Shown here one piece after another: positions 3,326 through 20,396 of a stretch of 64,000 bases of DNA. A program made the position numbers and the translations under genes. The stretch covers positions 9,308-73,307 of the forward strand of contig JBAZBH010000004.1 of NCBI GenBank assembly GCA_041671565.1. Reading direction: 5' to 3'. The notes under the pieces are model-generated. The model searched no databases. It saw nothing but the letters and a program-made list of their open reading frames with translations, and had not been told where the DNA came from. Source of the DNA: Patescibacteria group bacterium. GTDB lineage: Bacteria; Patescibacteriota; Patescibacteriia; JACRDY01. Numbering within the stretch: position 1 is the first letter of the stretch; the number at the start of each line of letters is the position of its first letter.

Positions 3326-3556
3326 ATGTCAGAAGTCAAACGGAAAAAAGGCGAATCTTTCGAGGCGCTTTTACGGCGGTTTAATAAGACCACAATTCGC
3401 AGTGGCCGGATTTTACAAGCCAAGAAAATCCAGTTTTATCGCAAGCCGAAAAATAAAAGCGCGCGCAAGACCTCCGCTCTCCGCTCCAAAGAGCTGCGGG
3501 AAAAGCGCGAGTATTTGCGTAAAATCGGCAAATTACCCGAAGAATATCAAAGATAA
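3326..3556 (+). CDS. rpsU: 30S ribosomal protein S21
   Basis: MSEVKRKKGESFEALLRRFNK...FYRKP; basic 76 aa protein. Confidence 0.85.
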   Translation: MSEVKRKKGESFEALLRRFNKTTIRSGRILQAKKIQFYRKPKNKSARKTSALRSKELREKREYLRKIGKLPEEYQR

Positions 3557-3561
3557 AATTT

Positions 3562-4002
3562 GTGTCTTTACTGGAAACTATTGAGCAAGATTTCCAAGCG
3601 GCGATGAAAAGCCGGACCGCAACCGTAGTTTCTACTCTACGGTTGCTTAAGGCTGAAATCATGAAAAAAGAGCGCGCCGGCAAGGAGCTGAAAGCTTTGA
3701 CTGAGGAGGAAGTAGCGGCGGCAGTAAAAGGCCAGATTAAACAGCGGCAGGATTCGATTGCCGAATACCAGAAGGCTGGTCGGGCTGATTTAGCCGAGCC
3801 GGAAGAGGCCGAGCTCAAGATTCTCCAGAAATATCTGCCCGAACAGCTGTCCGAGGCGGAAATTGAAAAGCTGGTTGAGGCGGCCGCCGCGGAAGTCGGT
3901 ACAGCCAATTTTGGCCAGCTGATGGGCGCGGTGATGAAAAAAGTCGGCGGCGCGGCGGACGGTAGTGTGGTTAGCCGGCTAGTTAAAAACAAAATAGTCT
4001 GA
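3562..4002 (+). CDS. yqeY: GatB/YqeY-domain protein
   Basis: LRLLKAEI, LKILQKYLPEQLSEAEIEKLV, GQLMGAVMKK; GTG start; ends with TGA. Confidence 0.8.
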   Translation: MSLLETIEQDFQAAMKSRTATVVSTLRLLKAEIMKKERAGKELKALTEEEVAAAVKGQIKQRQDSIAEYQKAGRADLAEPEEAELKILQKYLPEQLSEAEIEKLVEAAAAEVGTANFGQLMGAVMKKVGGAADGSVVSRLVKNKIV

Positions 4003-4179
4003 GATGGTTACAAAATTGTTTTTGCCGTAATTTGTCCTTTTTGGCTAAGGCTTCGTCAAGGTAGCGACAAAATTATTTTCGTCGTAGCTCGGCTACGGCT
4101 CAAATCATTTTGTCGCCCTTTCCTCGCCTTAACCAAAAAGTCCTAAATTCCGCCTAAAAACAGTTTTGTAACCATCTCA
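4001..4179. repeat. 179 bp palindromic element with 18 bp perfect terminal inverted repeats
   Basis: gagatggttacaaaattg ... cagttttgtaaccatctc. Internal arms are also mutually complementary (ggctaaggc / gccttaacc). A tataaat box follows immediately. Confidence 0.6.
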
Positions 4180-4208
4180 CAGTAAATAGTTATAAATTGG
4201 GCGAGAAG

Positions 4209-6536
4209 ATGGCGGGTTACTTCAAATTTTTTAAACCCATGAGCCCCAAGAAAAACAAAAAAATCCTAGTGAGTTTTGCCGGCATTGTTTTAGTGCTGGT
4301 TTTTTTATTATTGGGCGTGAAGCTGGCTTTAGCCTTAGATCAAACGACACTGGGCCTGCAACCGGTCGCCGAGAGCACGATTTTGCCGACAACCGACATT
4401 CGGGTGATTGTGGCGCGGATTATCCAGGTGGCGCTCGGCGTAGTCGGCCTGCTGTCGGTCGGCATGATTATCTATGCCGGCTGGCTTTGGATGACTTCAG
4501 GCGGGGAAGAGGATAAGATCAGTGAGGCTAAGAAAACCATGCTGAACTGGGCGATTGGTCTAATTATTATTTTTCTCGCTTTTGCGATTGTTACCTTTAT
4601 TTTCCAGATGCTGGGCGTGCAGATGGACGGGTTTATCTTCAGCGAGCGGCCGGGGACTAATAGCTTCGGCACTGGGGCGCTCGGCAACGGCATTATCGAG
4701 AGCCATTATCCGGCCCGGGACGCCGTTGGCATACCGCGCAACACACGGATCATTGTGACTTTTAAAGAGGCAATAAGCTTGTCGACGATATTTGATGCGG
4801 CGGCTGGTATTAGGCAAACTGAAAATCCGGTAACTCATGTGATTAAATACAGCGGTTTTTTAAATAGCGACAATATTAAAATTTTTGCTAAAGAATTAGA
4901 TGATGCCGCCACCACGGAGATCGAAGGCGCTCTCGCCTCAACTGAAGTGACCGTGGTGACGATTGATAAAAAAACTTTTACTTTTTCGCCGCCTTTACTC
5001 GGCAGCCAGTCGCATAATATGGATTATGCCGTGCGGCTGGGCGAGGGGTTGAAAAAATCTAACGGCGACAACGCTTTTCCGGCCGGAATAAACAGTTTTT
5101 ACATCTGGCAGTTCCAAGTCAGCACTTTTCTCGATATCACGCCGCCGCGAGTGGTGGATTTTTTCCCGCAACATGACCCACTGGGCGGAACGCCGGAATA
5201 CCGGAATGCGATTGTCCAGATTACTTTTGACGAGGCAATTGATCCGACCACGGTTGACCGACTGACGGTTTATGAGCTTGATGCGCCTAACGGATTGATA
5301 ACGAAACCGGTTGTCGGCAAATTTAGTATCTCCAATCAATATAAAACCTTGGAATTTGTGCCGGATGATTTTTGCGGGGTGAACTCTTGCGGCGACGAAA
5401 TTTTCTGTTTGCCGAAGGACACCAATCTTAAAGTGGTGGCGCCGGCCGGCACTTTATATATTGATCCCATTACTCATGAACCTTCTCCGGATTGGCCGGC
5501 TAAGAGCGATGGATTGGATGGCATTACCGATGTCTGTGCCAACTCGCTTAACGGCAACGGCACGGCGGGCGCGATTTGCGCGGATGACCGCGAAGTGGAA
5601 ATAGACGGCGCGTTTCCGTTTAATTGTTTAGGTAATACCGCGGCCGAGGTTGGCGGGGTGCCGGTGGTTCATCTTGGCCATTGCGCTTGCGCCATCGGTC
5701 CCAATCCGGCGCCAACGGCGGTTCAGGGCGCCACCCCACCACATTGGGATAACTTTGTCTGGCAGTTTAAAGCGGGCGATGAGATAAAAGTTACCCCGCC
5801 GCTGCTGGAAGAAATCAAACCCGGGCCGACCATTGACGATCGGAGTTGGGTGAATCTGGCGGCGGCGGCCACCGGCAAATTTGACGGACGGATGATGGGC
5901 CAGACCCTGACTAGCGACAATATTAGGCTAAAAACCGATAATAAAATTTTGTTTCCGCCGGATACTACCCAGCCTTTAGACGAGACGGATTTCCTTTGGT
6001 ATTTTATCCATTTTGATAACGAAGGCACTCCCCACCAAGTCCCGGCTTGCCAAAAAGCGTCGGCAACCAGAGAACTTAATTGTACAGACTTGGCCGGGTC
6101 GCAAGCGATGTGCCAGAATTCGGCTTGGCAGTGCCATTGGGTTAGTCCTAATGAATGTTTTTATGGTTGGCCGGATATCGAAGATCGGCCACAATGTTCG
6201 GATATTACTAATGAGGCCGAGTGCGGGCAAACTAGCGGCATTTGCGCTTGGCAACCGACCGGCGGAGTGAACACCACCTACAAAACCAAAGTTTATATTG
6301 AGCACCGGCCGTATCAAGAGACGCTAAGGACTCAATCGTCAGCTTTTGACTATTCAACGCATTTTCTTTCCGGGGTTAAAGATGTTTATCAGAATTGCTA
6401 TAAACCTTCCAGTTTACATGTTAATGCGACTGATTGGTGTGACGGTACTGATTCTTGTTGTATTAGTCAGTATTATTATTCTTATACTGGGGCGTGTCCG
6501 GAGCCTTTGCCGGTGGATTGGACGCCGGAAGAATAA
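4209..6536 (+). CDS. Surface protein with N-terminal T4SS-pilin-like (TrbC/VirB2-like) TM domain and Cys-rich C-terminus
   Basis: Signal/TM segment, then DIRVIVARIIQVALGVVGLLSVGMIIYAGWLWMTSGG...AIGLIIIFLAFAIVTF (pilin-like two-helix domain). About 600 aa extracellular region with a C-terminal CxW Cys cluster. Start is uncertain (TTG 4197, ATG 4209 or ATG 4239). Confidence 0.7.
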   Translation: MAGYFKFFKPMSPKKNKKILVSFAGIVLVLVFLLLGVKLALALDQTTLGLQPVAESTILPTTDIRVIVARIIQVALGVVGLLSVGMIIYAGWLWMTSGGEEDKISEAKKTMLNWAIGLIIIFLAFAIVTFIFQMLGVQMDGFIFSERPGTNSFGTGALGNGIIESHYPARDAVGIPRNTRIIVTFKEAISLSTIFDAAAGIRQTENPVTHVIKYSGFLNSDNIKIFAKELDDAATTEIEGALASTEVTVVTIDKKTFTFSPPLLGSQSHNMDYAVRLGEGLKKSNGDNAFPAGINSFYIWQFQVSTFLDITPPRVVDFFPQHDPLGGTPEYRNAIVQITFDEAIDPTTVDRLTVYELDAPNGLITKPVVGKFSISNQYKTLEFVPDDFCGVNSCGDEIFCLPKDTNLKVVAPAGTLYIDPITHEPSPDWPAKSDGLDGITDVCANSLNGNGTAGAICADDREVEIDGAFPFNCLGNTAAEVGGVPVVHLGHCACAIGPNPAPTAVQGATPPHWDNFVWQFKAGDEIKVTPPLLEEIKPGPTIDDRSWVNLAAAATGKFDGRMMGQTLTSDNIRLKTDNKILFPPDTTQPLDETDFLWYFIHFDNEGTPHQVPACQKASATRELNCTDLAGSQAMCQNSAWQCHWVSPNECFYGWPDIEDRPQCSDITNEAECGQTSGICAWQPTGGVNTTYKTKVYIEHRPYQETLRTQSSAFDYSTHFLSGVKDVYQNCYKPSSLHVNATDWCDGTDSCCISQYYYSYTGACPEPLPVDWTPEE

Positions 6537-6548
6537 AAAATAAATAGC

Positions 6549-9500
6549 ATGTTTAAGAAATTCAGTAAAATTTTTTTGGTGCTAGGTTTGACCGCAGTTT
6601 TGTTGCTGACGGCTTTTGGCGTCAGAACCGCGCTGGCGGCTGATGCCACTGACCTCGGTTTGTCTTATGTTAGCAATAACACCATATTGCCGACCGGCGA
6701 CATTCGGGTGTTGATTGCCAATATCATCCGCTACGCGCTGGGACTCCTCGGGATCGTGGCGGTGGTGATTTGCCTTTACGGCGGCTGGCTGTATATGACT
6801 TCGCAGGGCAATGAAGAGCAGACCACCAGGGCTAAAGCCGTTCTCCGCGACGGGCTGATCGGCCTCGCGATTATTTTGCTCGCTTTTGCCATTGTTTCCT
6901 TGGTCTTTAATTTCTTGGTTAATGCCACTAACCCAGGAGAAAGCTGCGCGCCTGGTGATCCGCCTCGGGGTTGCAATTGGGCTCCAGGACCTAATTGTTC
7001 TGGCACTCAACGCTGTGAGAGTAATAACCGTTGGGGCGGTTGTATTCCCAATTACCCGATACCACCTGAGTGCGAACTTCGTGATCAATTCTATATTCAT
7101 CATTTTTCGCCGCCACCTTATCCGCCGGTTACCGACCCATCAAAAATTGGTTATTGGCATGCGATTAAAGTCCGCAATGCGACCGAGGAGATAACTTTTA
7201 GCATGGCGGTTAATCCCGAGACTTTATTTGAAACCGCGCCAGATTCAGCGGCGTCGACTGCGGAGCCGGCTTTTATTGTGAGTAAAACATTTTTAAGTTT
7301 AAGCGGTGTTGATTATAGCGACCACTTGGTGATGACGGCGTCCAAGACCGGAAACGGAATAGAGATATTGTCAAACGGACAGAATGTGGCGCCTCTGGCT
7401 GACGGCATAAATAATTTCAAGTGGGCGGTCGTCAAGGTGACTGGCGGAAATTGGTCGGGCGACAACATCACGGTGATATTCCGGACTGATCAAATAACCA
7501 ATCAAGGTGATCTAGAGAGCTGGCTCGGCCAGCACAATGACATTGACGCGGGAAATTATACGGTGGTCAATATATTTGCGGTGGAAATTGCGGCCGCCGG
7601 GGTAGGCCATGACTACTTTACAGAATTCCCGCCAGCGGCCACCTATGCCGCCGGATCCGATCCGGCTGGCAGTATTTATTTGAACTACAGCGCGGCGGAG
7701 GCCGCCCAATCTGGTTCGGCGCGCATTAAGGTTTATAATCTCGGTATTACTTATGACCCAGCGAGCGCTGATCCGGCTAGGCATTTAGACGCGGTGGGCC
7801 AGCAACTTAAAGATATGTCAGAAGCTGATCTCAAGGCTTTGATGTTGCCCGATAAGCAAGTAGCCGGTGATTTGGTGGTGGTCAATGGGACAATAGTAGC
7901 GTTTAACCCGTCCGCGCCTTGCCCGGCAGGCCATGAGACTTTCTTTTGCTTTGATCAAAATACGGCCTATGGTGTGCTGGTGCTACCGGGTGTGGAAAGC
8001 CAGACGGGCAAACGGCTATTAGTGGACAGCGCTTGGCCTGATTTTGCTTACTTCTTGACCGGCGACAAAATCGACACCGAAGCGCCGGCAGTTACCTTAA
8101 ATATGCCGTTTGAAGGCCAGGGAGTTTGCGCCGACCAGTTTAACTTATCACCCGCCCAGAGCAATCTACAAAGTGACGCTCGGGATGACACCGAGATTAC
8201 GCGGGTGGCTTATTCAGTTTATGACGCTTCCGGTCCCCGGGGGCAATTGCCGATTCATTATTTTATTGATGGTGGCACTGGAAAAATTATGCCGAATACA
8301 GAAGCGTTATGGCATATTGACTATCCGAGCGGCGGACCGCTACCCGATAAGTATATTTCTTATGGTTCTTGGGATACTTATGGCTTTACATTTGTTACTC
8401 CACCACCACCGCGGGTGACTGTCAAAGCCGAAGCTCATGACTGGAATTTGAGTGTGGAAGACAGTAATACGGTGGTGATGCGGGCGGATCACTGTTGTAA
8501 TGGGAAAAAAGACCTCGATGAAACCGGAGTTGATTGCGGCGGGGCGTGGTGCGGCGGTTGTGACGGCGACGCTTGCAGTCTGGATACACAGTCTTGCCAG
8601 CCTGATCCCACGCTTTGCGCTTCCAGTTTTTGCGATCCGACCACCTGTGTTTGCCGGCATTTGCCAATCATTACTGAGGTGGATCCGGGTAATGGCGCGC
8701 CCGGCAATTTTATTACTATTTATGGCAAGTTTTTTGGGTCGCAGATCGGGCAAGTGGTATTTCTCGGCGCGGCTGGAGCCGGCGACGATAAAGTTGCTAA
8801 ATTACCGAACGAAATTAACCCGGCTTGCGGCAATACCTGGCAAGATGAACAGATTGTGGTGGCGGTGCCAACTGGCGCGGTTGATGGCCCAATTAAGGTG
8901 GTGACGGCGGGCGGCTTGGAAGACACCACCGAGTCCGGACCTTTACACCAAAGATATCCGGAAGAAGTGGTAATGACTTTTGATGTTAATCTGACTTTGC
9001 GGCCGGGGGCTTGTTTACTTCGTCCCGCGAGCGGTAAATTTAGCGAACAGGTGGATATTGTTGGCACCGGCTTTGGCCTGGGCACCGGCACTAGTGACAA
9101 AGTTTATTTTGGTACTATCGTTGGACCGGCAGTGGCTAACAGTTGGACACAAACGACGGTCGGGGCGCAGGTGCCAAATATCGCGGGCGGGCAAACCGTG
9201 GCGGTCAAAGTGCAAGTTGGGGCGGAGCAGAGCAATGGGCTGAGGTTTAATGTTACCGACGAAGGGGATAATAATTTTCCGCAGATTAATTATTTGGATC
9301 CGGTTGATGGCAATATCGGCCAATATGTGACAATTTTTGGCAAGAATTTTGGCGGCGACACCGGCACGGTGTTGTTCACTTATAACGCCGGCAGTGAAGC
9401 TCAGACCGCGTGGGGCGACTTTAATTTTCCGGCCGGTTGCGGCCAGACTTGGTCTGATAGCCAGATCATTGTTAAAGTGCCGCCGAGCTTTTTAAGTATT

Positions 9501-12500
9501 GGCGAGGTTCCCGGCGGGCCGCTGGTGTTGAATGTTAATTATAAGGTTAGCGTCAAGCGCCGGAACGACGGAGCCGAGAGCAATGCCGTGACCTTTTCCA
9601 CGGTTGATCGGGCGCTTAGCCCGGGCATTTGCCGCCTGAATCCGGACAACGGCCCGGAGGGCACGCCGGTTTACGCGTTGGGTGAAAATTTTGGCGCTTC
9701 CGATGAAGAGAAGAACGGATTTTTATTCTTTTCTTTAACTAAAGCTGATAATGTCGCCCGTGCCGGAGTGCCGCTCTGGGGCGATACCGCGGCTAAAGTT
9801 TTTGTGCCAGCGGAAGCCAATACCGGACCGGCTTATCTTTATAATCAAGGCTATTTTCCTTATACCGGCAAAAGCAATGAGGTTGGTTTCCGGGTCGGCG
9901 CCTGCACCCAAAATCTTTGCAATAATTATCCTGATGGCCTGGCCTGTAATAGCGGTAATCGCGGTCAACACGCGCCGGACGGCGCTCGCTGTTGGCTGTG
10001 TCTCGCTAACGGCTGGGAGTGGGATTACACGGCCGCGGATTGCAGCAGTCAGTTTAAAGATTGTTGCGATGACGGCGTTTGTTTAGATAAAAAATCCACT
10101 AACCCTCAGCCTTGCGCCACCCGCGGCAACAATTCTTCGCTTGCCTGGGCGTTTTCGACTGGTGAGATACCGGTTTATCCCCGCGTGGTGGAGGAGTGCA
10201 CTCAGTCGCTAAGTTGCAATCAAGCTAATCTGCCCAGCCCCAGCCCTTGGACGCCGGATTTTGACATTGATCGGGAATATGAGCTGGCTTGCAGTAACTC
10301 GGTAATTACCGCCCGTTTTACCGCGCCTATGAAACCGACTTCTTTTATTTATTTGACGGCGAGAAGTCCAGATGTCTATAAAGATGGCACTGGCGCCATT
10401 CAGCCAGCGTCAGCCACGGCCACGGTTGAAGTTAAAAAATGCGTAACCGCGGTGGTGGTTGATAATCATTTTATTAGTTGCAGTAACTGGGATAATCCGC
10501 TGCCGGGCGAACCGGAAATGCCGCCCAGCCCTGATAGTTTTCAATTTTATCCCGGCAGTAAAGCCGTCGGCACGGCGTTAGACCCTGATAGCTGGTATCA
10601 AGTGACACTTTTTGGCCGGCCGGCCGGGCAGACAAGCGGGGGACTGGTGGGGGTGAATGACTATCCGTTGCAGCAGAATTATGTTTGGCAATTTAAAACC
10701 CGTTCGGCTGCTGACGAGCCTTGCAAGGTGGGCTGTGTGACTGTGACGCCACCCAGTGTCACCGCCAGATTTTTAGGGCCTCTTCATCATTATAGCGCCG
10801 ATGGGATTGAGGGCGATCTTTGGTATCACCAGGCCTTTATTAGCGCCGAAGATAGCCCCTGTAATTTAATTAATGCCAGCGCTTATGGTTGGCTCTGGTA
10901 TGCGACTCAAAATGAGTTTATTAGGAAAGGTGCACGGGTAAACCATATCGCCTATAATCGGGTGAATGGCGCGCCGGATAAGCAGTTGGTTACCGCCCAG
11001 TTTGAGACCGCCGGTTTGCCAGTATTGTTGTGGGCCGAAGAAACATCTAGTCATCATAAAAATAAGGGCGATGTGTATGTCGATCTGGTTGACCCGCAGA
11101 TTATCGCCCGCTGGCCGGATTGTGGCACGGCTTGCGTTAACGCGCAGATTGGCGCGGCGTTTAACACCGAGATGGTCGCAAACGATTTTGATAGCGCCGA
11201 TACGGTTCAACTATTTTCCTGCGGCACTGATGCCACTTGTTCCGGCGTTATGGCCAGCGTGCCAATCAGCGATGTTTTTTATCAAGATCAAGACCAGCGC
11301 GCAACTTTACCGCCCGGCCATTATTTTCACGAATTAACCTTTAACGCCTCGGCGGCGCTCCTACCTAACATCTATTATCGGGTGGTGATCAAAAATACGG
11401 TTCAGAGCGTTGACGGCGTCTTTTTGACCATACCCAATGCCGCTGATCGTTATGACAGCAATCCGCAGGATGGCAATGTTGACGGTTATAGCTGGATTTT
11501 CAAAACTAAAAATGATTTTAACCTTTGCGCGATCGGTCGGGTGGCGGTGTCGCCCGCGGCGGCCAAACTGATTTGGATACCGGATTACCAGTTTTTTGGC
11601 GCGCAGGCTTATGGCTTTCCTGATGATTGCAACCAGTATGGCCAACGATTGGTTAATAGCTCTTACGCTTGGGATTGGGCGGCGACGGATAAAGCTAATG
11701 AACCACCATACGAAAATCCGGTGGCCAGAATTTCTCAGGTGCCGGCAGTCGGTTGCGGCAACGGCCTGATCAACCGCGGCGAGGACTGCGACGCTGGCCC
11801 GCGGAACGGCTTAGTTGGCAGTGGTTGCACGACCCAGTGTTTACATACCGGCAGTGTGGCTGGCGGCACTTGTCGTAATGGCGTGGTGGATGTTGGCGAG
11901 GAATGTGATTATGGTGAATTGGTAAATAATGATGATGACAGTACTAATTATAGCTTAAAATATTGTGATTCCGTCACTTGTTTGCGGTTGGGTAACGGCA
12001 ATAGCGGCACGGTTTGCGGCAACGGCCTCTTGGAGCCTGGCGAAGCGTGCGACACACTCTTTGAACCCAATGGCGATGATAGCGATGGTTGCACTGACCA
12101 CTGTACTCATTCTGGTAGTTTGCCGCTAGCCGCTGGCGGCACTTGCGGCGACGGCCGAGTGGGTCTGGGTGAGGAATGTGAAAGTTGTCTGGTGTGCCAA
12201 GGGGGGACGGCAGCTAATAACTGTTCGGCTAAAGAGCCAACCGCGGCGGCTTGCATCATGCCTTGTTCAGTGCGGACAGCCACTACACCTTACTGGGAAT
12301 GCACGGGGGCGACTGGTTGTTCGGCTAAAGGTGAAACCTCTTGCCGCGCTGACAATGCCTGTGTCTGGACCAGAAGAACTTTAGCCTGCGAGACACCGAC
12401 GGCATCCAGCGAGGGTTGTTACACTAATTGTTTATTACTAAATGGCGATTTGTATAAATATTCCGGCAGTAATTATTCAACTTCTATGTCGGTTTGCCAT

Positions 12501-15500
12501 AACGGTCTGGTGGAAATCGGCGAGGAGTGCGATTTGGGGCTGCCAATCAATATTGGCGGCGCGGATAATTATAGATTAAATCAGTGTAACTCTGCCAATT
12601 GTTTGAATGCCGGCGCTCCAATTTTAACAACTTATGCGCCGGCCGGCCCGTTTCAGATTGCCACTTCGGTTAATGAAGGCTTTTCTGAAATCACCGCGGC
12701 GGCCGGCGGGTTTTGCGCTAGCGACCACAGTAAAGCTTGCGTAGCCAATTTTGATTGTCCGGTTAATGACACCTGCGACATTAGCCTCCAAAAGAAGAAT
12801 GACCCGGTGTCCGAACTGGAAGTGGTCTGCCATCTGGCCGCTGAAGATTGCCCTTATTCCACGCCTAGCGACCTTTTTCCCAGAGGACTAGATAGCAATG
12901 GTTGTTGCCGTCTGCGGCCGCAAGTCGCGGTGATGGTGCCGGCCAATAACCCTGACTCGGATTGGGAGTGTGTCGGTCCGGGTACTTGTTCGAGTAACGG
13001 CCGTAGCGCTTGCCTAGCGGATACTTCATGTTCTTGGACTAGAAAAAATGCGGTTTGCCGCAATACCGTGATCACGGCTTCGTTTAACTATCCTGATGGC
13101 ACCGTTACATTAGAGGCCATGGATGCCAGTAGTTTTACCAAAGATAATGTGGTTTTGGAATATAATAACGGCTTGAATGTCTGTCCGGGAGCGCCGGTCA
13201 GTTTCTTACAAAATAAGTTCCCCTGGATTAAAGTGTTTGGCCAAGATGGCTTGTTATCTTGGGGTTATCACAAGTTAGGGGAGCTAGCCAAAAAGTTTTT
13301 GGGCCAAGACGCTTTAGCCGATGCCCGGCCGGAGGATATCTGGTGTCCGGTCAAGTCTTCAGTCACCGGCAGCGGGGATAAATTGGAGGTTAATCTCTTA
13401 GAAATGTTGCCGGCGAATAAGCAAATCCGGGTGGTAGTGAAAGAAGGTGTGAAAGACAGCCACGGCACGCCGCTCGGTAATTTCAATCACCGAATAGTTG
13501 ACGGGCTCGATATCTCTTGCAACGACCGAGATGGCAATGCTAATGGCTGTAATAGTTTTGTTTGGACCTTTAATACCGGCGCGGATATTTGTCTTTTAAA
13601 CCGAGTAGTGGTTGATCCGCTACAGGCTTCTTTGAACTACCATTTTGACGCCGCCACCCAGCTTGATGGCAGTTATTACGACCCGAAAGCCACCGCCAAG
13701 AGTTCTAACGGCCCGATCCAAATGGTGCCGGGGACTTATAGTTGGACTTGGAGTTGGTCTAAGGGCAGTTTGCCGGACGCCGTGGCGACGATGACTGATA
13801 ATCGATATTGTTCCGAAAATCCGTCGCAGGTTTGCACTAATAATACTGTTGCTTGCGCTAATGACAAAGGCGCTTGCACGGCTGACGCCGCGCCGAGCGT
13901 TTTAAAACATTGTTCCGGCGATCCAACGGTTGATTGCACCGCTGACGCCACGGTTTGTAAACCAAATTGCGTTTCTCACGACCAGCAAAAGGTTATGGCC
14001 CAGCAGCAAAACGGCGAAGGTGTGATCACCGCCACGGCTAAAGTTAATCAGGTTGACCCGTCGCTCGTGAGTGAAACTTTACTGGGCGCGGCTTATTCCG
14101 GCGAGTCGCAACTGGTGGTTTTCTTCTGCAATAATCCTTGGCCGCGGGTTTGTAAACATTATGATGCTAATTCTAACTCGTGGTTAACAAGCAGTCCTTT
14201 AACACCTTGTCAGATTGGTGATGATTTACTTGATGATGATTGCGCGGCGGGGGACAGTTGCAGTTTTGACGCTTGGGGACTGGAAGATTCGTCAGACACA
14301 GCGGTTCCGGCTTTCTTAAGCAATCCGGTTTATACCAATTTTAAAACTTATTATTGCCGCGATGCCGGCGCTGCTGACCGGACTAGCGACGATTTGCCCT
14401 CACTCGCTTTCCCGCCAACCGTGATTCCGCCCAATATACAGCCGCTCGGAGTGGGCGGCAGTAGCCAGCTTCTGCGGCACATGCTCCTGCCACGGGCGAT
14501 TGATTCCTCCTTCTGGGGGAGTGAGATTGGCGGTTCCAGCGACGCGGTGATTATCAGCGTGGAAAAAAATATTGAGCACCTTTCGCCGGCGCTTTGGTTC
14601 ACCGAGAAGTTCGGCGGCGCGCCCACGGCGGAAAAAGTTGACGGCTATGAGGCGGTCAATTCGGGCAACACGCATTATATCAACGCCGGTAATTTTGTGC
14701 CGGCCACCGGGGAAACTAATTATGGCCCCTGCGTCTTGCCTGCCGGTAACGGTGTTTGTCGGCTACAACCGTCGTTAGCTTGTCAAAATGACGGGCAGTG
14801 CCGTGTGCCTAGCGATAGTAGTTGGACTAGTAGAACCAGTATCCCTGATCGGAGTTGGCAGTCGGTCGCTTATGGTAATGGTAAATTTGTTGCCGTGGGT
14901 CAAACTGATATAGTGATAACTTCACCGGATGGCATTAACTGGACTAGTCAAACCGCCATTAATAATACCTGGCAATCCGTCACCTATGGCAACGGCATCT
15001 TTGTGGCAGTGAATGATTCTAACACCGGTGATCGGGTAATGACTTCGCCAGATGGCATTACTTGGACCAGCCGACCAGCTGATTATGGCCAATATACTCA
15101 ATGGCAATCCGTCACCTTTGGCAATGGTAAATTTGTGATGGTGAATAGCAATGGTACTGGCAATCAAGCGATGACTTCACCGGATGGCATTAATTGGACT
15201 AGTCAAACCACGCCGACCCCCAATAATAGTTGGTCTGCCGTCACCTACGGCAATGGTTTGTTTGTGGCCGTGGCTGATTCTGGCGCTGGCGTAATGACTT
15301 CACCGGATGGCATTACTTGGACCAGCCGCACCGCCGTTGATAGTGAATGGCGATCTGTCACCTATGGCAACGGCTTATTTGCAGCCGTGGCAATATCATC
15401 TGGCTCCCATCCTAGAGTAATGACCTCACCGGACGGCATTACTTGGACTAGCCGAACTGCCCCGGCTCAGCTTTGGTCATCCGTCACCTATGGCAATGGC

Positions 15501-18500
15501 TTGTTTGCGGCCGTGGCTTATTCTGGTACCGGCAATCAAGCCATGACTTCACCGGATGGCATTACTTGGACCAGCCAAACTCCCGCTCATAATTTTTGGT
15601 CCGCCGTCACCTATGGCAATGGCTTGTTTGTGGCGGTGGCTTATGGCGGCGGCACTGGCAATCGAGTGATGACTGCTTCGCTCTCAGCCGGTGGGGAAAC
15701 CGATTATGGGCCTTGTGATATTGCTACCGGCGGCACTTGTGAACTCAACTCGTCTTTAGCTTGCCAAAATGATGGCCAGTGCACGGTTCATAGCGGCGGC
15801 GGTGTCAACGATCGTTTATACACCAATATTTACATTTTGTCCCAGACCGAGAATTCTAATTCCAACACCAATAATATCTTCCAACAGTTGTTGAGGAATT
15901 TAACCTTTAACACCAATATCCCCAGCTCTAATACTTGTTTTAAACAAATCGGGGCCACCCCCCAAGAAATTTTGGACGCCGATGGCAATCCGGTGGTCTG
16001 TAGCCAAGATGCCGACTGTTATCGCTGTTCTCCGAACATTTCTGTCGCCAATCCTAACCCGGATAAGATTTGCGAGATTAGTGACGATTGCGCGGCGCCC
16101 GGAACCACGGCGTTGGAGTGTGATGCCGATCGTCCCGGTGTCACCATTACTTGCAACAGCCCCAAACTTAAAGTTACCCGCAATGTCAAACGGGCGGCGG
16201 ATATTCATGATACGCGCAGTCTCCTGGCGGCCTATGGCGAACAGCATAAAGTTGATAATATCAAAACTTACCCGAGTTTAGCCGCCGGCAGTTATCTTAA
16301 TGGCCAATCTTACAGCGCTTGGCCGTCCTGGCAGGCGACGCTGGGCAATGCGCTTGGCCGCACGCTGGCAATTGATCCGCTGAATGCTTTTTATGGTTGT
16401 AGCGCGCCTTATAATTCTACCACTTGCTGGGACCAGAAGACCCTGCGGTTTGCTTGTCCGGCGAAGTCTTACACCTATTATTACAGCGTGGCGCCGGATC
16501 TGAAGACTTATCGGCTGCTGGCTAATTTTGAGCAGTTTAGCACTACGCCGATAGCCGATCTTTGGGATGTGTTTAAAGATTATGAAAGCGTATTGCAGGA
16601 GGTTTGTTATAACTTTGAAGGGCGGAATTTTGACGATTACGACCAGGACGGTGTCAAAGACAGCGTGGATAATTGTCCGGGCGACAAGAATGGCTATACC
16701 TTGCCTTGCGACGGTTCTAATGACGGACTGTGCTGTCCGTACGACGATGTTCGCTTTTGTTGCCCTTATTATAATCCTGATATGCCAGATACTGATCCGG
16801 GTTTTGATGCCATGATAGCGGCGGTACGGGATAATTGCGGCCACACCAGGACCGGCCAAGCCGATACTGACGGTGATGGTATTGGCAATACTTGCGAAGA
16901 TTGTCCGAATGACGCCAACCATAATGACGCGGATAACGACGGCTTATGTGGGCAGGAGGATAATTGCTGGATGATTAGTAACCCAGAACAATTGGATAGT
17001 GATAATAGCTGTCCGGAGCCGCCATTTTATACCAGCGGCGCTGATCCCCAAACTTACGATCCGGCCTGCGGCGATGTTTGCGATTCTACCTGTCGCGGCC
17101 TGGGCGATGATGATTGCCAACAGGTTTGTGAGGGTAATAATAATGTTTGGTTAAATCAGGGCGGGCAGTCTAACTGTTGCGGCGACGATCCGGGTGAAGG
17201 CGCGGTGGGGACGATTGAAACCGGTAGCCAGTGCTTTGACGGCATTGACAACAACTGCGACGGCCGGATTGACGAAAGTGTTGACCCGGACAGCGACGGC
17301 GCCGGCTCCTGCGACCGGCCGGTGGCGGATTGTAATAACGATCCCGCCAGCCGTCCCGTTAGCGGTTCCGATATCTATCCTGGGGCAACCGAAGATTGTT
17401 ATAATAATATTGATGATAATTGCAATGGATTACTCGACGCCGCTGATCCGCAGTGCGCTCTTGTTACTTTTTCTCTTTCTGAAGCCATAACCCCGACTAC
17501 CGATTCTTATTATATTAAATTTACTAAAGATGATGATCCTAATTTTGTCGGTATGGTCGGGGCGCCGCAGGGCGTTTCCTATGGCCTACCCAATGAATTA
17601 GTTTGTTTTGGCACTAATACTTCCGGTGTCGTGCCAGCGCCATACCGAGCCTGCTTTGATAAATCCGGGCAAAGACCATTTTCAGATTTTCAAGGGTTTA
17701 TTTTGCCAGTCGGTAACTATACGGCCGAGATTTATCCAATTGAACCTAGTTCGGCGGTTGGCGATTATAGCCTGACGGCCAGCCAAAATGTTGCCGTTAC
17801 TGATATTTCTCATCCTAGCTGTGTTAATAATAACTACCTTAATTATGGCGCGGCTGACGGCGGACATTGCCTGCCGTGGAGCCATACCGAGTTTTGGGCC
17901 GACGCCTCTGATTGCGCCCTGACTGTCGGGGGGAACCATTATACTGATCCTAACTATTTACAAGCTTGGGGCGTGGATGGAAATGTTTTAACCACGCCAA
18001 CGAGAGAGCAACAACATTGTTTCAATCTCGCGCCGACTGATAAATATTACACTTTTCGGTTGGATAGCGACCATAGTGTTTTAAACGCGCCTTTACCCGA
18101 CTTTGAAAATACTTTTGTCGGCGCTGAATATGATTGGCAAGGTGTGGCTTATGGCGAGAACACATTTGTGGCGATTAGCGCTGACAAGGTAATGACTTCA
18201 GCTGACGGCGCCACTTGGATTGCCCGTAACGGTGGCGGCATGCAAGATTGGCATAGTGTGGCCTATGGCGGTGGCAAATTTGTGGCCGTAGCCAATAACG
18301 GCCACGCTGGCCTTAAAAGGGTGACGATTTCCGATGACGGCATTACTTGGCGGTATGGGATGTCTACCGGAGATCGAGAGGATGATTATCAGAGCATTGC
18401 TTATGGCGGTGGCAAATTTGTGGCCGTGGCTAGCGGCACTGGCAATCGAGTTATAACTTCGTCTGATGGCATCGCCTGGACTGCCCACGCTACTCCAAAC

Positions 18501-19082
18501 AACAATGATTGGCAAAGTGTGGCTTATGGCGTTGTCCAGAGCCGCGGCACATTCGTGGCCGTGGCTAATTCCGGCACCGGCCGGATTATGACTTCAACGG
18601 ATGGCGCCAGTTGGACGGCTTTAAATATCGGCGACGCTTATGATTGGCAGAGTGTGGCTTATGGCGAGGGCAAGTTTGTGGCGGCGGGCACTGATAGCGC
18701 GGGCAAATTAGTTGAAGCCTTTTCCGATGGCGCTAGTTGGACAGTCAATGTTTCGGCTAATACCGGCAAAGTGTATGCCTTGGCTTATGGCGGCGGCACA
18801 TTTGTGGCCGTGGTTGATAGCGCCGCGGGTAAGCAAGTAATAACTTCACCTGATGGCGCTAGTTGGACACCTTCGCCCAACCACACGCTGGATAATGATT
18901 GGCGGAGCATTGCTTATGGCGGCGGTAAGTTTGTGGCCGTGGCTAGTTCCGGCGTGGGCAACCGAGTGATGACTTCTTATAATGGCATTGATTGGGAACC
19001 CCAAGCCGCGGCGGTTTCGCCTAACCCAGTTTATTGGGATCCGGATGTTTTAATTAAATTTAGGTTTACCGTTACACATTAA
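6549..19082 (+). CDS. Giant (4177 aa) surface/adhesin-like protein with the same N-terminal pilin-like domain, followed by IPT/TIG domains, Cys-rich repeats, TSP3 Ca-binding repeats and two BNR/Asp-box beta-propellers
   Basis: N-term DIRVLIANIIRYALGLLGIVAVVICLYGGWLYMTSQG...LAFAIVSLVF. IPT/TIG-like ITEVDPGNGAPGNFITIYGKFFG (x3). CGNGxxExGEECD Cys-rich repeats. DQDGVKDSVDNCPGD / DTDGDGIGNTCEDCPND TSP3 repeats. About 7 + 8 repeats of WxSVxYGNGxFVAV...MTSPDGITWT, where SxDGxTW is the BNR/Asp-box. Confidence 0.8.
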   Translation: MFKKFSKIFLVLGLTAVLLLTAFGVRTALAADATDLGLSYVSNNTILPTGDIRVLIANIIRYALGLLGIVAVVICLYGGWLYMTSQGNEEQTTRAKAVLRDGLIGLAIILLAFAIVSLVFNFLVNATNPGESCAPGDPPRGCNWAPGPNCSGTQRCESNNRWGGCIPNYPIPPECELRDQFYIHHFSPPPYPPVTDPSKIGYWHAIKVRNATEEITFSMAVNPETLFETAPDSAASTAEPAFIVSKTFLSLSGVDYSDHLVMTASKTGNGIEILSNGQNVAPLADGINNFKWAVVKVTGGNWSGDNITVIFRTDQITNQGDLESWLGQHNDIDAGNYTVVNIFAVEIAAAGVGHDYFTEFPPAATYAAGSDPAGSIYLNYSAAEAAQSGSARIKVYNLGITYDPASADPARHLDAVGQQLKDMSEADLKALMLPDKQVAGDLVVVNGTIVAFNPSAPCPAGHETFFCFDQNTAYGVLVLPGVESQTGKRLLVDSAWPDFAYFLTGDKIDTEAPAVTLNMPFEGQGVCADQFNLSPAQSNLQSDARDDTEITRVAYSVYDASGPRGQLPIHYFIDGGTGKIMPNTEALWHIDYPSGGPLPDKYISYGSWDTYGFTFVTPPPPRVTVKAEAHDWNLSVEDSNTVVMRADHCCNGKKDLDETGVDCGGAWCGGCDGDACSLDTQSCQPDPTLCASSFCDPTTCVCRHLPIITEVDPGNGAPGNFITIYGKFFGSQIGQVVFLGAAGAGDDKVAKLPNEINPACGNTWQDEQIVVAVPTGAVDGPIKVVTAGGLEDTTESGPLHQRYPEEVVMTFDVNLTLRPGACLLRPASGKFSEQVDIVGTGFGLGTGTSDKVYFGTIVGPAVANSWTQTTVGAQVPNIAGGQTVAVKVQVGAEQSNGLRFNVTDEGDNNFPQINYLDPVDGNIGQYVTIFGKNFGGDTGTVLFTYNAGSEAQTAWGDFNFPAGCGQTWSDSQIIVKVPPSFLSIGEVPGGPLVLNVNYKVSVKRRNDGAESNAVTFSTVDRALSPGICRLNPDNGPEGTPVYALGENFGASDEEKNGFLFFSLTKADNVARAGVPLWGDTAAKVFVPAEANTGPAYLYNQGYFPYTGKSNEVGFRVGACTQNLCNNYPDGLACNSGNRGQHAPDGARCWLCLANGWEWDYTAADCSSQFKDCCDDGVCLDKKSTNPQPCATRGNNSSLAWAFSTGEIPVYPRVVEECTQSLSCNQANLPSPSPWTPDFDIDREYELACSNSVITARFTAPMKPTSFIYLTARSPDVYKDGTGAIQPASATATVEVKKCVTAVVVDNHFISCSNWDNPLPGEPEMPPSPDSFQFYPGSKAVGTALDPDSWYQVTLFGRPAGQTSGGLVGVNDYPLQQNYVWQFKTRSAADEPCKVGCVTVTPPSVTARFLGPLHHYSADGIEGDLWYHQAFISAEDSPCNLINASAYGWLWYATQNEFIRKGARVNHIAYNRVNGAPDKQLVTAQFETAGLPVLLWAEETSSHHKNKGDVYVDLVDPQIIARWPDCGTACVNAQIGAAFNTEMVANDFDSADTVQLFSCGTDATCSGVMASVPISDVFYQDQDQRATLPPGHYFHELTFNASAALLPNIYYRVVIKNTVQSVDGVFLTIPNAADRYDSNPQDGNVDGYSWIFKTKNDFNLCAIGRVAVSPAAAKLIWIPDYQFFGAQAYGFPDDCNQYGQRLVNSSYAWDWAATDKANEPPYENPVARISQVPAVGCGNGLINRGEDCDAGPRNGLVGSGCTTQCLHTGSVAGGTCRNGVVDVGEECDYGELVNNDDDSTNYSLKYCDSVTCLRLGNGNSGTVCGNGLLEPGEACDTLFEPNGDDSDGCTDHCTHSGSLPLAAGGTCGDGRVGLGEECESCLVCQGGTAANNCSAKEPTAAACIMPCSVRTATTPYWECTGATGCSAKGETSCRADNACVWTRRTLACETPTASSEGCYTNCLLLNGDLYKYSGSNYSTSMSVCHNGLVEIGEECDLGLPINIGGADNYRLNQCNSANCLNAGAPILTTYAPAGPFQIATSVNEGFSEITAAAGGFCASDHSKACVANFDCPVNDTCDISLQKKNDPVSELEVVCHLAAEDCPYSTPSDLFPRGLDSNGCCRLRPQVAVMVPANNPDSDWECVGPGTCSSNGRSACLADTSCSWTRKNAVCRNTVITASFNYPDGTVTLEAMDASSFTKDNVVLEYNNGLNVCPGAPVSFLQNKFPWIKVFGQDGLLSWGYHKLGELAKKFLGQDALADARPEDIWCPVKSSVTGSGDKLEVNLLEMLPANKQIRVVVKEGVKDSHGTPLGNFNHRIVDGLDISCNDRDGNANGCNSFVWTFNTGADICLLNRVVVDPLQASLNYHFDAATQLDGSYYDPKATAKSSNGPIQMVPGTYSWTWSWSKGSLPDAVATMTDNRYCSENPSQVCTNNTVACANDKGACTADAAPSVLKHCSGDPTVDCTADATVCKPNCVSHDQQKVMAQQQNGEGVITATAKVNQVDPSLVSETLLGAAYSGESQLVVFFCNNPWPRVCKHYDANSNSWLTSSPLTPCQIGDDLLDDDCAAGDSCSFDAWGLEDSSDTAVPAFLSNPVYTNFKTYYCRDAGAADRTSDDLPSLAFPPTVIPPNIQPLGVGGSSQLLRHMLLPRAIDSSFWGSEIGGSSDAVIISVEKNIEHLSPALWFTEKFGGAPTAEKVDGYEAVNSGNTHYINAGNFVPATGETNYGPCVLPAGNGVCRLQPSLACQNDGQCRVPSDSSWTSRTSIPDRSWQSVAYGNGKFVAVGQTDIVITSPDGINWTSQTAINNTWQSVTYGNGIFVAVNDSNTGDRVMTSPDGITWTSRPADYGQYTQWQSVTFGNGKFVMVNSNGTGNQAMTSPDGINWTSQTTPTPNNSWSAVTYGNGLFVAVADSGAGVMTSPDGITWTSRTAVDSEWRSVTYGNGLFAAVAISSGSHPRVMTSPDGITWTSRTAPAQLWSSVTYGNGLFAAVAYSGTGNQAMTSPDGITWTSQTPAHNFWSAVTYGNGLFVAVAYGGGTGNRVMTASLSAGGETDYGPCDIATGGTCELNSSLACQNDGQCTVHSGGGVNDRLYTNIYILSQTENSNSNTNNIFQQLLRNLTFNTNIPSSNTCFKQIGATPQEILDADGNPVVCSQDADCYRCSPNISVANPNPDKICEISDDCAAPGTTALECDADRPGVTITCNSPKLKVTRNVKRAADIHDTRSLLAAYGEQHKVDNIKTYPSLAAGSYLNGQSYSAWPSWQATLGNALGRTLAIDPLNAFYGCSAPYNSTTCWDQKTLRFACPAKSYTYYYSVAPDLKTYRLLANFEQFSTTPIADLWDVFKDYESVLQEVCYNFEGRNFDDYDQDGVKDSVDNCPGDKNGYTLPCDGSNDGLCCPYDDVRFCCPYYNPDMPDTDPGFDAMIAAVRDNCGHTRTGQADTDGDGIGNTCEDCPNDANHNDADNDGLCGQEDNCWMISNPEQLDSDNSCPEPPFYTSGADPQTYDPACGDVCDSTCRGLGDDDCQQVCEGNNNVWLNQGGQSNCCGDDPGEGAVGTIETGSQCFDGIDNNCDGRIDESVDPDSDGAGSCDRPVADCNNDPASRPVSGSDIYPGATEDCYNNIDDNCNGLLDAADPQCALVTFSLSEAITPTTDSYYIKFTKDDDPNFVGMVGAPQGVSYGLPNELVCFGTNTSGVVPAPYRACFDKSGQRPFSDFQGFILPVGNYTAEIYPIEPSSAVGDYSLTASQNVAVTDISHPSCVNNNYLNYGAADGGHCLPWSHTEFWADASDCALTVGGNHYTDPNYLQAWGVDGNVLTTPTREQQHCFNLAPTDKYYTFRLDSDHSVLNAPLPDFENTFVGAEYDWQGVAYGENTFVAISADKVMTSADGATWIARNGGGMQDWHSVAYGGGKFVAVANNGHAGLKRVTISDDGITWRYGMSTGDREDDYQSIAYGGGKFVAVASGTGNRVITSSDGIAWTAHATPNNNDWQSVAYGVVQSRGTFVAVANSGTGRIMTSTDGASWTALNIGDAYDWQSVAYGEGKFVAAGTDSAGKLVEAFSDGASWTVNVSANTGKVYALAYGGGTFVAVVDSAAGKQVITSPDGASWTPSPNHTLDNDWRSIAYGGGKFVAVASSGVGNRVMTSYNGIDWEPQAAAVSPNPVYWDPDVLIKFRFTVTH
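14850..15700 (+). repeat. Tandem ~135 nt coding repeats (7 BNR/Asp-box blades) inside the giant ORF
   Basis: Repeated ...tggcaatccgtcacctatggcaatggc...atgacttcaccggatggcattacttggacc... Confidence 0.65.
18128..19005 (+). repeat. Second tandem BNR/Asp-box blade array (about 8 blades) at the C-terminus of the giant ORF
   Basis: Repeated DWQSVAYGGGKFVAV...MTSxDGxxWT units. Confidence 0.6.
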
Positions 19083-19091: not shown

Positions 19092-19586
19092 ATGGTATTT
19101 TTGCCCGCTAACGATCCGATGCAACCGGATAAAAACCGCAAGTTAATCTACGCGATTGTTGCCGTGGCAGTTTTGATTTTAGTGGTTTTTGGTTATATTC
19201 TATTGAAGTGGTGGCAGAGGCCGCCTGCCGAACCGCAGGGACAGACGCCGGCAATTAACCAACCAGTTAATGAGGCGCCGGCAGTTAATCAGCCAACCGC
19301 CGAAAACCCAGAAGGCAAGCCTTCGGCGGGCGAAGTAACCAAGGTTAAGGGGGAAAATGGCAATTATTTAACTTTGGCCGAAGTAGAGAAAATATTAAGT
19401 GAAGCTAAGCCGGTTCTGGGGCCAGACGCGGATAATGACGGCCTGAGCGACAGTGAGGAAAAGTTTTATGGCACAGATAAGAATAACCCCGACACTGACG
19501 GCGACGGCTATAAAGACGGGGAAGAGGTGCAAAAAGGCTACAATCCGCTTGGCCCCGGCCGCGACATCAAGATCTTTACTCAATAA
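19092..19586 (+). CDS. Small TM-anchored protein with bacterial TSP3-type Ca-binding repeats (paralog 1 of 3)
   Basis: N-terminal TM; PAINQPVNEAPAVNQP linker; GPDADNDGLSDSEEKFYGTDKNNPDTDGDGYKDGEEVQKGYNPLGPG. Confidence 0.65.
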   Translation: MVFLPANDPMQPDKNRKLIYAIVAVAVLILVVFGYILLKWWQRPPAEPQGQTPAINQPVNEAPAVNQPTAENPEGKPSAGEVTKVKGENGNYLTLAEVEKILSEAKPVLGPDADNDGLSDSEEKFYGTDKNNPDTDGDGYKDGEEVQKGYNPLGPGRDIKIFTQ

Positions 19587-19613: not shown

Positions 19614-20396
19614 ATGTTTGATGATGCCAAAAAACCAGACACGGCTGTAAACACCGAAGACATTTTCTCGGAAGTGGATCAGACGCCAGCCACGCCAGTT
19701 CGCCAGCCGTTTAACCAACCAGCGGTTCCGCCAGCGCCGGGTATGCCTGAGCCGGGATTTCCCAGTATGGGCGGCGGCCGGCCGTGGCTCAAGATTGTCT
19801 TGGTGGTTTTGATAGTTTTGGCAGTGGTGGTTTTGGGGGCGGTAGCCGCGAAATTTTTGTGGCCGACCGGCAATACGCCAGCCATTAATTCCACGCCAAC
19901 TTTAAACCTGAATAGCGCCATTAACCAAGAGCCGGCGTTGAATTTAAACCAGCCAATTATTAATCAAGATGAAGTAGAGCCTTTAATCAATGAGCCGGTA
20001 GCAGCGCCCTTGGACAGCGACAGCGACGGGCTAACCGACGCCGATGAGATAAAATATGGCACCAATCCTTATTTGCCGGACACGGATTTGGACGGTTTGT
20101 TTGATAAAGAAGAGATCGAAATTTACAAAACCAATCCGCTCAACGCCGATACTGACGGTGACAGCTACCAAGACGGGGCAGAGGTGAAAGGCGGTTATAA
20201 CCCGAATGGTCCTGGCCGGCTCTACAGTCCGGCGGCGCCCGCCACTAATTCGAATCAAACCGCTACCCCGAGTTCAAGTTTTACCTGCCCAACTGCCACC
20301 GAGACCACCAACTGTATGCCGGTTTTAACTAGCGAACGAGCTATCTTTTGCCAATGGGTCAAAGACAATTGCCCGAATGCTAAAATTGTTTACTAA
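19614..20396 (+). CDS. Small TM-anchored TSP3-repeat protein (paralog 2 of 3)
   Basis: TM helix; N/P/Q-rich linker; [68 protein letters not shown]; Cys-containing C-terminus. Confidence 0.65.

Follow-up and report, generated by a model that had tools for sequence, protein, structure and literature searches.

Two large predicted surface proteins sharing a VirB2-like pilin-type domain in a conserved gene cluster of Patescibacteria

What does a pilin-type domain do at the foot of a protein of several thousand residues? This question is raised by two adjacent genes, p1 and p2, on the forward strand of a 64-kb stretch of contig JBAZBH010000004.1 from a Patescibacteria group bacterium (assembly GCA_041671565.1). 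That whole stretch is the window analyzed here, and all coordinates are window positions. Patescibacteria account for a large share of bacterial diversity and apparently live attached to other cells; to our knowledge, their contact-making molecules are largely unknown apart from type IV pili. p1 (4239..6536) encodes a predicted surface protein of 765 amino acids (aa) as called in public data, while the whole open reading frame (ORF) of p2 (6549..19082) encodes a predicted giant surface protein of 4177 aa. The locus is best explained as a surface-protein cluster passed on by vertical inheritance, in which p1 and p2 come first and three TSP3_bac proteins are included as well. With somewhat better than even confidence, we take the products of this cluster to form a membrane-anchored attachment fibre assembly on an oligomerising pilin-type base, serving attachment to host cells or to a substrate.

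A pilin-type domain common to p1 and p2

The initial annotation of this DNA described two adjacent ORFs, each opening with a signal or transmembrane (TM) segment followed by a closely similar two-helix domain, and both parts of this description are borne out. The ORFs lie on the forward strand at 4197-6536 and 6549-19082 (4177 aa). For p1, the mechanical ORF begins with a TTG start at 4197 and the public gene call with the ATG at 4239; an exhaustive homology search returned a protein (P0125) that is 100% identical to p1 from residue 11 of the translation beginning at 4209. Comparison of the two N-terminal domains reveals 48% identity over 122 aa (E 3e-35), and no third copy occurs in the window. 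Pfam and AlphaFold2 (AF2) place a signal peptide in p1 ahead of a hairpin of PF18895, a pilin family of type IV secretion systems (T4SS), at residues ~54-128 of the 765-aa numbering. In p2, a signal peptide (residues ~1-31, ending TALA/AD) precedes the same hairpin, with helices at 52-84 and 89-127 (6549..6935, forward strand).

The search with the PF18895 hidden Markov model that the initial annotation had proposed gave 31.7 bits for p1 against a gathering cut-off of 26.6 bits. The score for p2 is borderline: scanned whole, the protein reaches 23.6 bits, below that cut-off, and its first 500 aa scanned alone reach 27.1 bits. The NCBIfam model NF045849 (Mbov_0395 pilin-like) also matches p1 (E 4.5e-9, 35.9 bits) and p2 (E 3.2e-7, 29.9 bits), both under the family cut-off of 40 bits. 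A profile built from the two domains retrieved 243 proteins, of which the best 120 are all stand-alone PF18895 proteins of 108-231 aa; some of these free homologues also match PF04956 (TrbC/VirB2). They come from Magasanikbacteria and other Patescibacteria and are 40-56% identical to the fused domains. In an alignment of 68 sequences, comprising 66 free pilins together with p1 and p2, the p2 domain aligns across its full length and keeps all eight invariant positions, as well as the conserved stretch that precedes helix 1 in the free pilins. The free pilins end ~10-15 residues past helix 2, which is exactly where the ectodomains of p1 and p2 start.

Structure prediction is consistent with this arrangement. 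The AF2 model of the p2 N-terminus contains helices at 5-29, 52-84 and 89-127, with a predicted local distance difference test score above 90 across the hairpin; the model of p1 contains helices at 7-24, 54-86 and 91-128 and is all-beta thereafter (predicted TM-score 0.67). Fold searches do not distinguish the hairpin from generic helical hairpins, and family membership therefore rests on the sequence profiles; a profile search of the PDB with the domain returned no match. Taken together, the profiles and the alignment support placing the N-terminal domain of p1 and p2 in PF18895, the VirB2-like pilin family of Patescibacteria. From the signal peptide and two helices we predict that both termini face outward and the loop between the helices inward, which would place everything after residue ~130 outside the cell. 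The ~163 Cys residues of p2 fit such an extracellular location. Identity as a type IV pilin was rejected, given that the signal peptides are of the Sec type and end in ALA/xD, that there are two helices, and that a class III prepilin motif is lacking.

At 765 and 4177 aa, p1 and p2 fall outside the size of the small stand-alone pilins (~100-230 aa). The fusion itself is common, in line with the earlier statement that a domain of this kind is fused to large extracellular regions: p1-type architectures form 634 clusters at E<=1e-30. The p2 core matches 76 proteins of 1.1-2.6 thousand aa, most of which carry PF18895, TIG and Big_5. A query with the first 1250 aa of p2 retrieved four proteins, all p1-type and matched through the pilin domain only.

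A conserved cluster in a housekeeping block

The wider distribution of the locus was assessed in 84 related loci. An alignment-based contig scan, with one genome per species and a query pattern lying inside the pilin domain, gave at least 573 stretches that encode a relative, the best 80 of which were taken; four of the related loci (L001-L004) have gene calls. A contig scan with the p1 sequence alone gave no match. The gene order that emerges is LepB, HisS, YqeY, a pilin-plus-Ig rod protein, a pilin-plus-giant protein, TSP3_bac membrane proteins, YbeY, FtsA and FtsZ. p1 and p2 homologues are adjacent in 74 of the 84 loci and the p2 core is present in 78; lepB and hisS lie upstream in 68, and yqeY is present in 62. 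TSP3_bac proteins follow the giant in 23 loci, that is, in essentially every locus with enough flanking sequence, and ybeY-ftsA-ftsZ come next. The four gene-called loci each present a signal peptidase, a histidyl-tRNA synthetase, a 700-900-aa pilin-plus-Big_5 protein and then the giant, which is annotated with PF18895 in three of the four. Complete giants in the related loci measure ~1,550-3,590 aa, two shorter split fragments being set aside, and the p2 of the window is the longest among the compared loci. In the nearest genome (L008), HisS is 68% identical to that of the window.

The record titles of cluster-bearing contigs name Uhr-, Magasanik-, Falkow- and Komeilibacteria, Paceibacter and Parcubacteria. 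L006, L007, L014, L015 and many others are titled 'uncultured Gammaproteobacteria bacterium', and one is titled 'Candidatus Udaeobacter sp.'; these titles look wrong.

The three small membrane proteins of the window lie on the forward strand at 19092-19586, 19614-20396 and 20399-21397 (164, 260 and 332 aa). Each contains an N-terminal TM helix, a Pro/Ala-rich linker and TSP3_bac (PF18884) calcium-binding-type repeats, scoring 52.3, 43.8 and 47.5 bits where the cut-off is 25. Conservation extends to the C-terminal domain of the third, which matches a 437-aa ORF of L004 and a 343-aa ORF of L003. The gaps between p1, p2, the three small ORFs and ybeY measure 2-27 nt, and this spacing suggests that p1, p2 and the small ORFs are co-transcribed. 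A promoter and terminator scan found terminator-like sites at background level and no promoter-like site in the gap upstream of p1.

The conservation of the individual parts of the cluster differs markedly. Median identity to the window across the loci is 48% for the pilin domain, 52% for HisS and 55% for LepB, but 33% for the p1 ectodomain and 29% for the p2 core. The pilin domain is thus conserved like a housekeeping protein and the ectodomains much less, where a plain membrane anchor would be expected to retain its hydrophobicity rather than its sequence. Within a genome, the p1 and p2 hairpins share a median of 62% identity (n=75), compared with 50-51% for p1-p1 or p2-p2 pairs across species, which points to concerted evolution (gene conversion) or to co-adaptation; the window's own pair, at 48%, lies below the within-genome median. 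The fused domains are 47-49% identical to free pilins, about as close as they are to their orthologues. We read this closeness, along with the conservation, as a sign that the hairpins make specific contacts, most simply p1 with p2 and possibly with the free pilin pool.

A second explanation, which takes up the initial annotation's reading of display on a pilus-like scaffold, is that p1 and p2 are modular VirB2 pilins whose hairpins a T4SS pulls out of the membrane and builds into a conjugative-type pilus with the free PF18895 pilins encoded elsewhere, as sparse or tip subunits displaying their ectodomains. We judge this unlikely. In its favor, the fused domains keep every residue invariant in free pilins, the conserved stretch ahead of helix 1 included, for which a simple anchor would have no use; they also stand as near to free pilins as to their own orthologues and show housekeeping-level conservation. 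In the solved F- and T-pilus structures, the termini of VirB2-family subunits lie on the outside of the pilus, and a C-terminal fusion would therefore be compatible in principle. The size of the cargo argues the other way, since a homopolymeric pilus has no room for ~4,000 aa of ectodomain on every subunit, and no pilus of this type has been reported for any Patescibacterium in the literature found. The fold searches, which could not tell the hairpin from generic ones, likewise lend the explanation no help. Published work on Patescibacteria T4SSs describes pilin arrays that are essential and found no PrgB-type adhesin (PMC12102498, PMC10633639, PMC12857230), with one survey reporting pilin arrays but "no adhesins" (PMC12102498); this reported lack of an adhesin counts in the explanation's favor.

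Inspection of the genomic context reveals little that would connect the locus to such a machine. No VirB4, VirB6, VirB3 or TrsD is present among the ORFs scanned in the window, and none lies within 10 kb in L001-L004, so that the cluster does not adjoin T4SS genes either here or in the four gene-called relatives. The only T4SS-type gene of the window is an orphan coupling-protein-type ATPase of 894 aa (31108..33792, forward strand), which lies outside the cluster and matches VirD4/TrwB models. The initial annotation had called it a VirB4-like ATPase 12 kb downstream. That identity was rejected, with scores of 20.5 bits against a cut-off of 643.1 for TIGR00929 and 17.6 against 590 for NF045975. 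Its matches are instead to the coupling-protein models PF10412 TrwB_AAD_bind (38.1 bits, cut-off 20.5), PF02534 T4SS-DNA_transf (28.4 bits, cut-off 20.1) and PF12696 TraG-D_C (22.0 bits, cut-off 22), and TrwB is its sole sequence match in the PDB. All NCBIfam equivalogs fall far below their cut-offs, which makes it a distant member of the coupling-protein group. Between p2 and this gene lie ybeY, ftsA, ftsZ, cysS and dus, with corA and an HD protein on the opposite strand, and the ATPase is unlinked to the locus. Coupling-protein homologues number 5,713 in 2,918 Patescibacteria genomes, or about two per genome, are mostly unlinked to virB4, and proved dispensable in the one species tested (PMC12102498). 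In the window and in up to 78 of the 84 related loci, the locus is part of a housekeeping block (lepB-hisS ... ybeY-ftsA-ftsZ) and not of a T4SS cluster.

The ATPase itself has one N-terminal TM helix and ~400 aa without a family match ahead of its P-loop domain, and the ORFs that flank it (30409-30918 and 33833-34444) have no Pfam or NCBIfam match.

A more far-reaching version of the pilus explanation treats the hairpins as true assembly-competent pilin modules; joined by free pilins, they would build a filament or stub that depends on the T4SS, on a monoderm cell, and p1 and p2 would be the first 'modular VirB2 pilins' with giant adhesins as their cargo. We hold this to be a little more doubtful still. 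If it were true, the p1-p2-TSP3_bac cluster would be the missing adhesin arm of the Patescibacteria T4SS, would help to explain why T4SS and pilins are essential for epibiotic growth, and would couple host recognition by phage-type propeller heads directly to the secretion machine.

Ectodomain modules and what they may serve

Beyond the hairpin, the p1 chain begins with two Ig-like domains of the Big_5 family (53.8 bits), continues with more beta domains and ends in a cysteine-rich C-terminus. Foldseek matched its model to the Ig domains of LdtMt2 and to the S-layer protein SbsC, the latter with E 6e-5 over ~600 columns but a TM-score of 0.14.

The p2 ectodomain is considerably more complex. 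A cysteine-rich knot at residues ~640-700 precedes an IPT/TIG array (8900..9990, forward strand; residues ~785-1145), a region conserved in orthologues. Pfam (PF01833) confirms the IPT/TIG label given earlier: the score of 45.3 bits exceeds the cut-off of 20.9, and each of two overlapping fragments contains two matched stretches; a Big_5 domain is matched in p2 as well. Five copies of a CGNG...GE(E/D)CD cysteine-rich repeat follow (11760..12540, forward strand; residues ~1740-1997), in agreement with the repeats already seen in the translation. Four of them, at 1775-1997, were recovered by a pattern search for C(G/R/H)(N/D)G..GE(E/A)C(D/E), and the fifth, with GEDCD, by reading the translation; the motif columns are invariant in an alignment of three giants. 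Further along lie a conserved module, here called p3, and a TSP3-like, MopE-like region rich in calcium-binding-type and cysteine motifs (15786..17485, forward strand; residues ~3079-3645), in which p2 is 37-41% identical to the giants of L006 and L007. MopE-type cysteine motifs score above threshold in p2 (33.6 bits), and four DxDxDG motifs occur at residues 3363-3584. The TSP3 label attached to the giant fares less well, as TSP_3 (PF02412) reaches 18 bits in three stretches against a cut-off of 25; clear TSP3_bac repeats belong to the three ORFs downstream.

Two repeat arrays complete the protein. Propeller 1 (14706..15785, forward strand) spans residues ~2720-3079, with seven blades at 2767-3060, and the C-terminal propeller 2 (18126..19082, forward strand) spans residues ~3860-4150, also with seven blades. 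A motif scan resolved these arrays as 7 + 7 repeats of ~42 aa, with 11 copies of a blade motif, S-x-D-G-x-x-W, that is one residue shorter than the Asp-box. The initial annotation had read them as two BNR propellers with Asp-box blades. The two arrays stand, but the BNR/sialidase assignment was rejected: no canonical Asp-box (S-x-D-x-G-x-T-W) occurs in the repeats, and BNR families are absent from the Pfam matches even at E<=1 on fragments. Above their cut-offs instead are EPTP (41.8 bits) and DUF6242 (32.3-33.5 bits), and propeller 2 alone scores 33.5 bits for DUF6242 and 31 bits for EPTP. From these patterns we infer seven-bladed propellers with an Asp-box-like turn. A sequence search of the PDB with the propellers gave one chance match and a weak match to designed beta-trefoils with 42-aa repeats (E 1.6e-4); a beta-trefoil with repeats of that length is a possible alternative fold for the arrays.

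Comparison with related giants reveals how these modules are combined. p2 is collinear with the single giant ORFs of L007 (3375 aa) and L006 (3453 aa) in blocks covering residues 1-226, 352-1452, 1491-2719 and 3079-3645, at 33-41% identity and over ~3,600 residues overall. Propeller 1 (residues 2720-3078) has no counterpart in either giant and forms a clean in-frame insertion, positioned between two matches to a 1020-aa ORF of L003 and hence within a module that some relatives encode as a secreted protein of its own. Over its final 530 residues, propeller 2 among them, p2 shows no homology to the tail of the L007 giant, and among the compared loci the window's p2 is the only giant with the two propellers. 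Such genes had been described as often hypervariable, a description that the giant as a whole does not fit: its blocks keep the order seen in orthologues, and what varies is limited to modules that were inserted or exchanged. A diversity-generating retroelement target was also considered and rejected, as no reverse transcriptase turned up among the ORFs scanned.

The same comparison speaks to whether the 12.5-kb ORF is real at all. An assembly artefact (frameshifted or chimeric) was raised with the initial annotation; any artefact of assembly or annotation, be it a chimera, two genes read through as one or a repeat that collapsed, now appears highly improbable. The region homologous to residues 3070-3400 of p2 is a separate, signal-peptide-bearing ORF of 842-1270 aa in nine related loci, and the propeller blades are repeated at the DNA level, as an artefact of this kind would have it. 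The fused form is nevertheless the commoner one, occurring in 49 loci, and the order of homologous blocks is the same in the single giant ORFs of L006 and L007. The blade repeats are 71-77% identical as DNA and thus too divergent to collapse in assembly, the reading frame is unbroken for 4177 codons, and GC content is even along the gene.

Relatives of propeller 1 are found far outside this cluster. The module is present in none of the 84 related loci, within the stretches captured, but at least 580 metagenomic stretches encode counterparts with 50-67% identity; the proteins concerned measure 290-4,550 aa, are otherwise unlike p2 and carry no pilin domain. A further 539 IMG/VR viral stretches contain relatives at 50-68% identity, including phage-sized, jumbo and giant-virus contigs. 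Eleven records of cultured phages match at 27-47% identity; in Xanthomonas phage Xoo-sp13 (MN047793.1), the module makes up the C-terminus of a 'host specificity protein' of 1,439 aa encoded beside tail sheath genes, and other phage relatives were labelled 'baseplate wedge initiator' and 'Ycf48-like' by their depositors. Propeller 1 is much better conserved than the rest of p2. Its high conservation, combined with its absence from the 84 loci, makes it look like a recently recruited mobile binding module.

Assembled into a mechanism, these observations suggest the following. p1 and p2 would each be exported via Sec by a cleavable signal peptide and held in the cytoplasmic membrane by the VirB2-type two-helix hairpin, with their disulfide-rich C-terminal regions exposed on the cell surface. 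p1 would form a ~600-aa rod of Ig-like domains. p2 would form a ~4,000-aa fibre made up of a TIG/Big_5 stalk, cysteine-rich repeats, the conserved module, calcium-binding-type repeats and two seven-bladed propellers, the distal propellers serving as putative ligand-binding heads for a host cell or substrate. The hairpins would do more than anchor passively: they probably associate with one another, and perhaps also with free pilins, as an oligomeric base in the membrane, and the TSP3_bac proteins may act as calcium-binding partners. The stacking of Ig-like, cysteine-rich and propeller modules fits the attachment role that the initial annotation had proposed.

Several points weigh against an attachment fibre. 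No known adhesive domain was identified in p1 or p2. The propeller fold is predicted from the repeat pattern and profile matches, and surface exposure, oligomerisation, calcium binding and adhesion are likewise deduced from the sequences. The phage analogy draws on a few depositor annotations, and PHROGs holds no annotated family for any C-terminal module of p2. Hairpin conservation and likeness to free pilins would fit co-assembly with the T4SS pilin pool equally well. Finally, a core-genome position next to ftsA and ftsZ could mean a structural role in the envelope rather than adhesion.

This last point opens onto a third explanation, namely that the cluster builds a structure of the core envelope, for instance an S-layer-like coat or a spacer separating the membrane from the outer surface layer, for integrity or division and not for host attachment. 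We regard it as rather improbable, and the same holds for its corollary that the TSP3_bac proteins would provide calcium-dependent cross-links. The cluster does keep its place in the housekeeping block by ybeY-ftsA-ftsZ across Uhr-, Magasanik-, Falkow- and Komeilibacteria and Paceibacter/Parcubacteria metagenome-assembled genomes, and the TSP3_bac membrane proteins are conserved partners, as a core structure would lead one to expect; synteny with ftsA and ftsZ may, however, simply mirror the general collinearity of small genomes. The resemblance of the p1 Ig-like chain to SbsC points the same way by its E-value, but the TM-score indicates that the match reflects generic Ig chains. The ectodomains, moreover, diverge fast (29-33% identity), and their modules are gained, lost, fused and split, with 49 fused and nine split loci and the propeller insertion, in a manner typical of interaction surfaces rather than lattices. 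We retain the attachment fibre on a pilin-type base as the favored reading.

Other features of the window and known systems

Immediately upstream of p1, the gap between yqeY and p1 contains a near-perfect intergenic hairpin of ~180 nt (4000..4180, forward strand). RNA folding gives it a minimum free energy of -83.4 kcal/mol (z = -14). Its two arms are the only matches to it in the window, with no further copy; an Rfam search returned no match, and the hairpin is not conserved ahead of p1 in five relatives tested. It may be a leader, a terminator or an element resembling a miniature inverted-repeat transposable element, and whether it belongs to the locus is uncertain.

Elsewhere, in the interval 37807-40184, a low-GC stretch (0.32 compared with ~0.49 in the remainder) directly follows a tRNA gene (37807-37878) and encodes a 738-aa protein with DndB-like and Swt1-type HEPN domains; the low GC, the tRNA neighbor and the domain content together indicate a likely acquired defense gene. 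A second lower-GC stretch (0.39) at 43644-44984 encodes a 446-aa protein with an Mrr-type restriction endonuclease domain. Part of an IS200-like Y1 transposase domain (27.2 bits) is encoded between cysS and dus, in a 184-aa ORF (26346-26900). A distance of 3 kb separates two tRNA synthetase paralogues of the class II Asp/Asn/Lys type (49924-51219 and 54059-55480), a stand-alone aminoacyl-tRNA editing domain protein is encoded at 56214-56774, and three clustered tRNA genes are followed by parA and parB at 59403-61860. With nearly all genes on the forward strand and a steady rise in cumulative GC skew, the window probably falls within one replichore and may be near the origin.

Parts of this system are already known. 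VirB2-like pilins and pilin arrays are published for Patescibacteria, and databases already list hundreds of fused homologues, labelled for example "pilin" or "IPT/TIG domain-containing protein". What the window contributes is therefore no new family but a member of unusual length that carries additional modules. We found no description of the pilin-ectodomain fusion, the cluster or its synteny in the literature, which reflects the limits of that search and is not proof of absence. The analysis adds that two large predicted surface proteins have a pilin-type domain as their conserved foot, in a cluster whose position is kept across ~80 genomes at species level. The foot shows housekeeping-level conservation, while modules are exchanged in the exposed parts, among them a propeller family that is frequent in viral contigs. 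The cluster is thus a concrete and widely distributed candidate for an attachment apparatus or a core envelope structure of Patescibacteria, and whether or not it is linked to their essential T4SS can be put to the test.

The closest known relatives of the p1 and p2 foot are the VirB2-like pilins of Patescibacteria (PF18895; PMC12102498, PMC10633639), which resemble it in their signal peptide, pre-helix-1 segment, two hydrophobic helices and invariant residues. The free pilins measure 108-231 aa and are often encoded in arrays near virB4, whereas p1 and p2 add ~640 and ~4,050 residues and are encoded in a housekeeping block with no VirB4, VirB6 or VirB3 nearby; fused forms are unmentioned in either publication. 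The Mbov_0395 family (NF045849) of integrative and conjugative elements in Mycoplasma consists of small two-helix membrane proteins of monoderm conjugation, and its profile matches p1 and p2. It differs in that the 80-position model describes a small protein without an ectodomain, and the scores of p1 and p2 stay under its cut-off of 40.

Fibrillar adhesins (PMC9210967) are similar to p1 and p2 in their great length, Ig-like stalk (TIG, Big_5), putative distal binding modules and surface anchor. That anchor is a C-terminal LPxTG motif and the genes reside in accessory loci, in contrast to the N-terminal pilin-type hairpin, core syntenic locus and lack of a known adhesive domain in p1 and p2. 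The PilB and PilC proteins of Streptococcus sanguinis are modular type IV pilins, in which a pilin module is fused to a functional, adhesin-bearing C-terminal module. The concept is the same as proposed for p1 and p2, but PilB and PilC belong to another pilin superfamily and carry smaller cargo, and p1 and p2 have no class III leader. Lastly, propeller 1 is like the propellers of phage tail and host-specificity proteins in sequence, while in p2 the module is located in a chromosomal bacterial surface protein.

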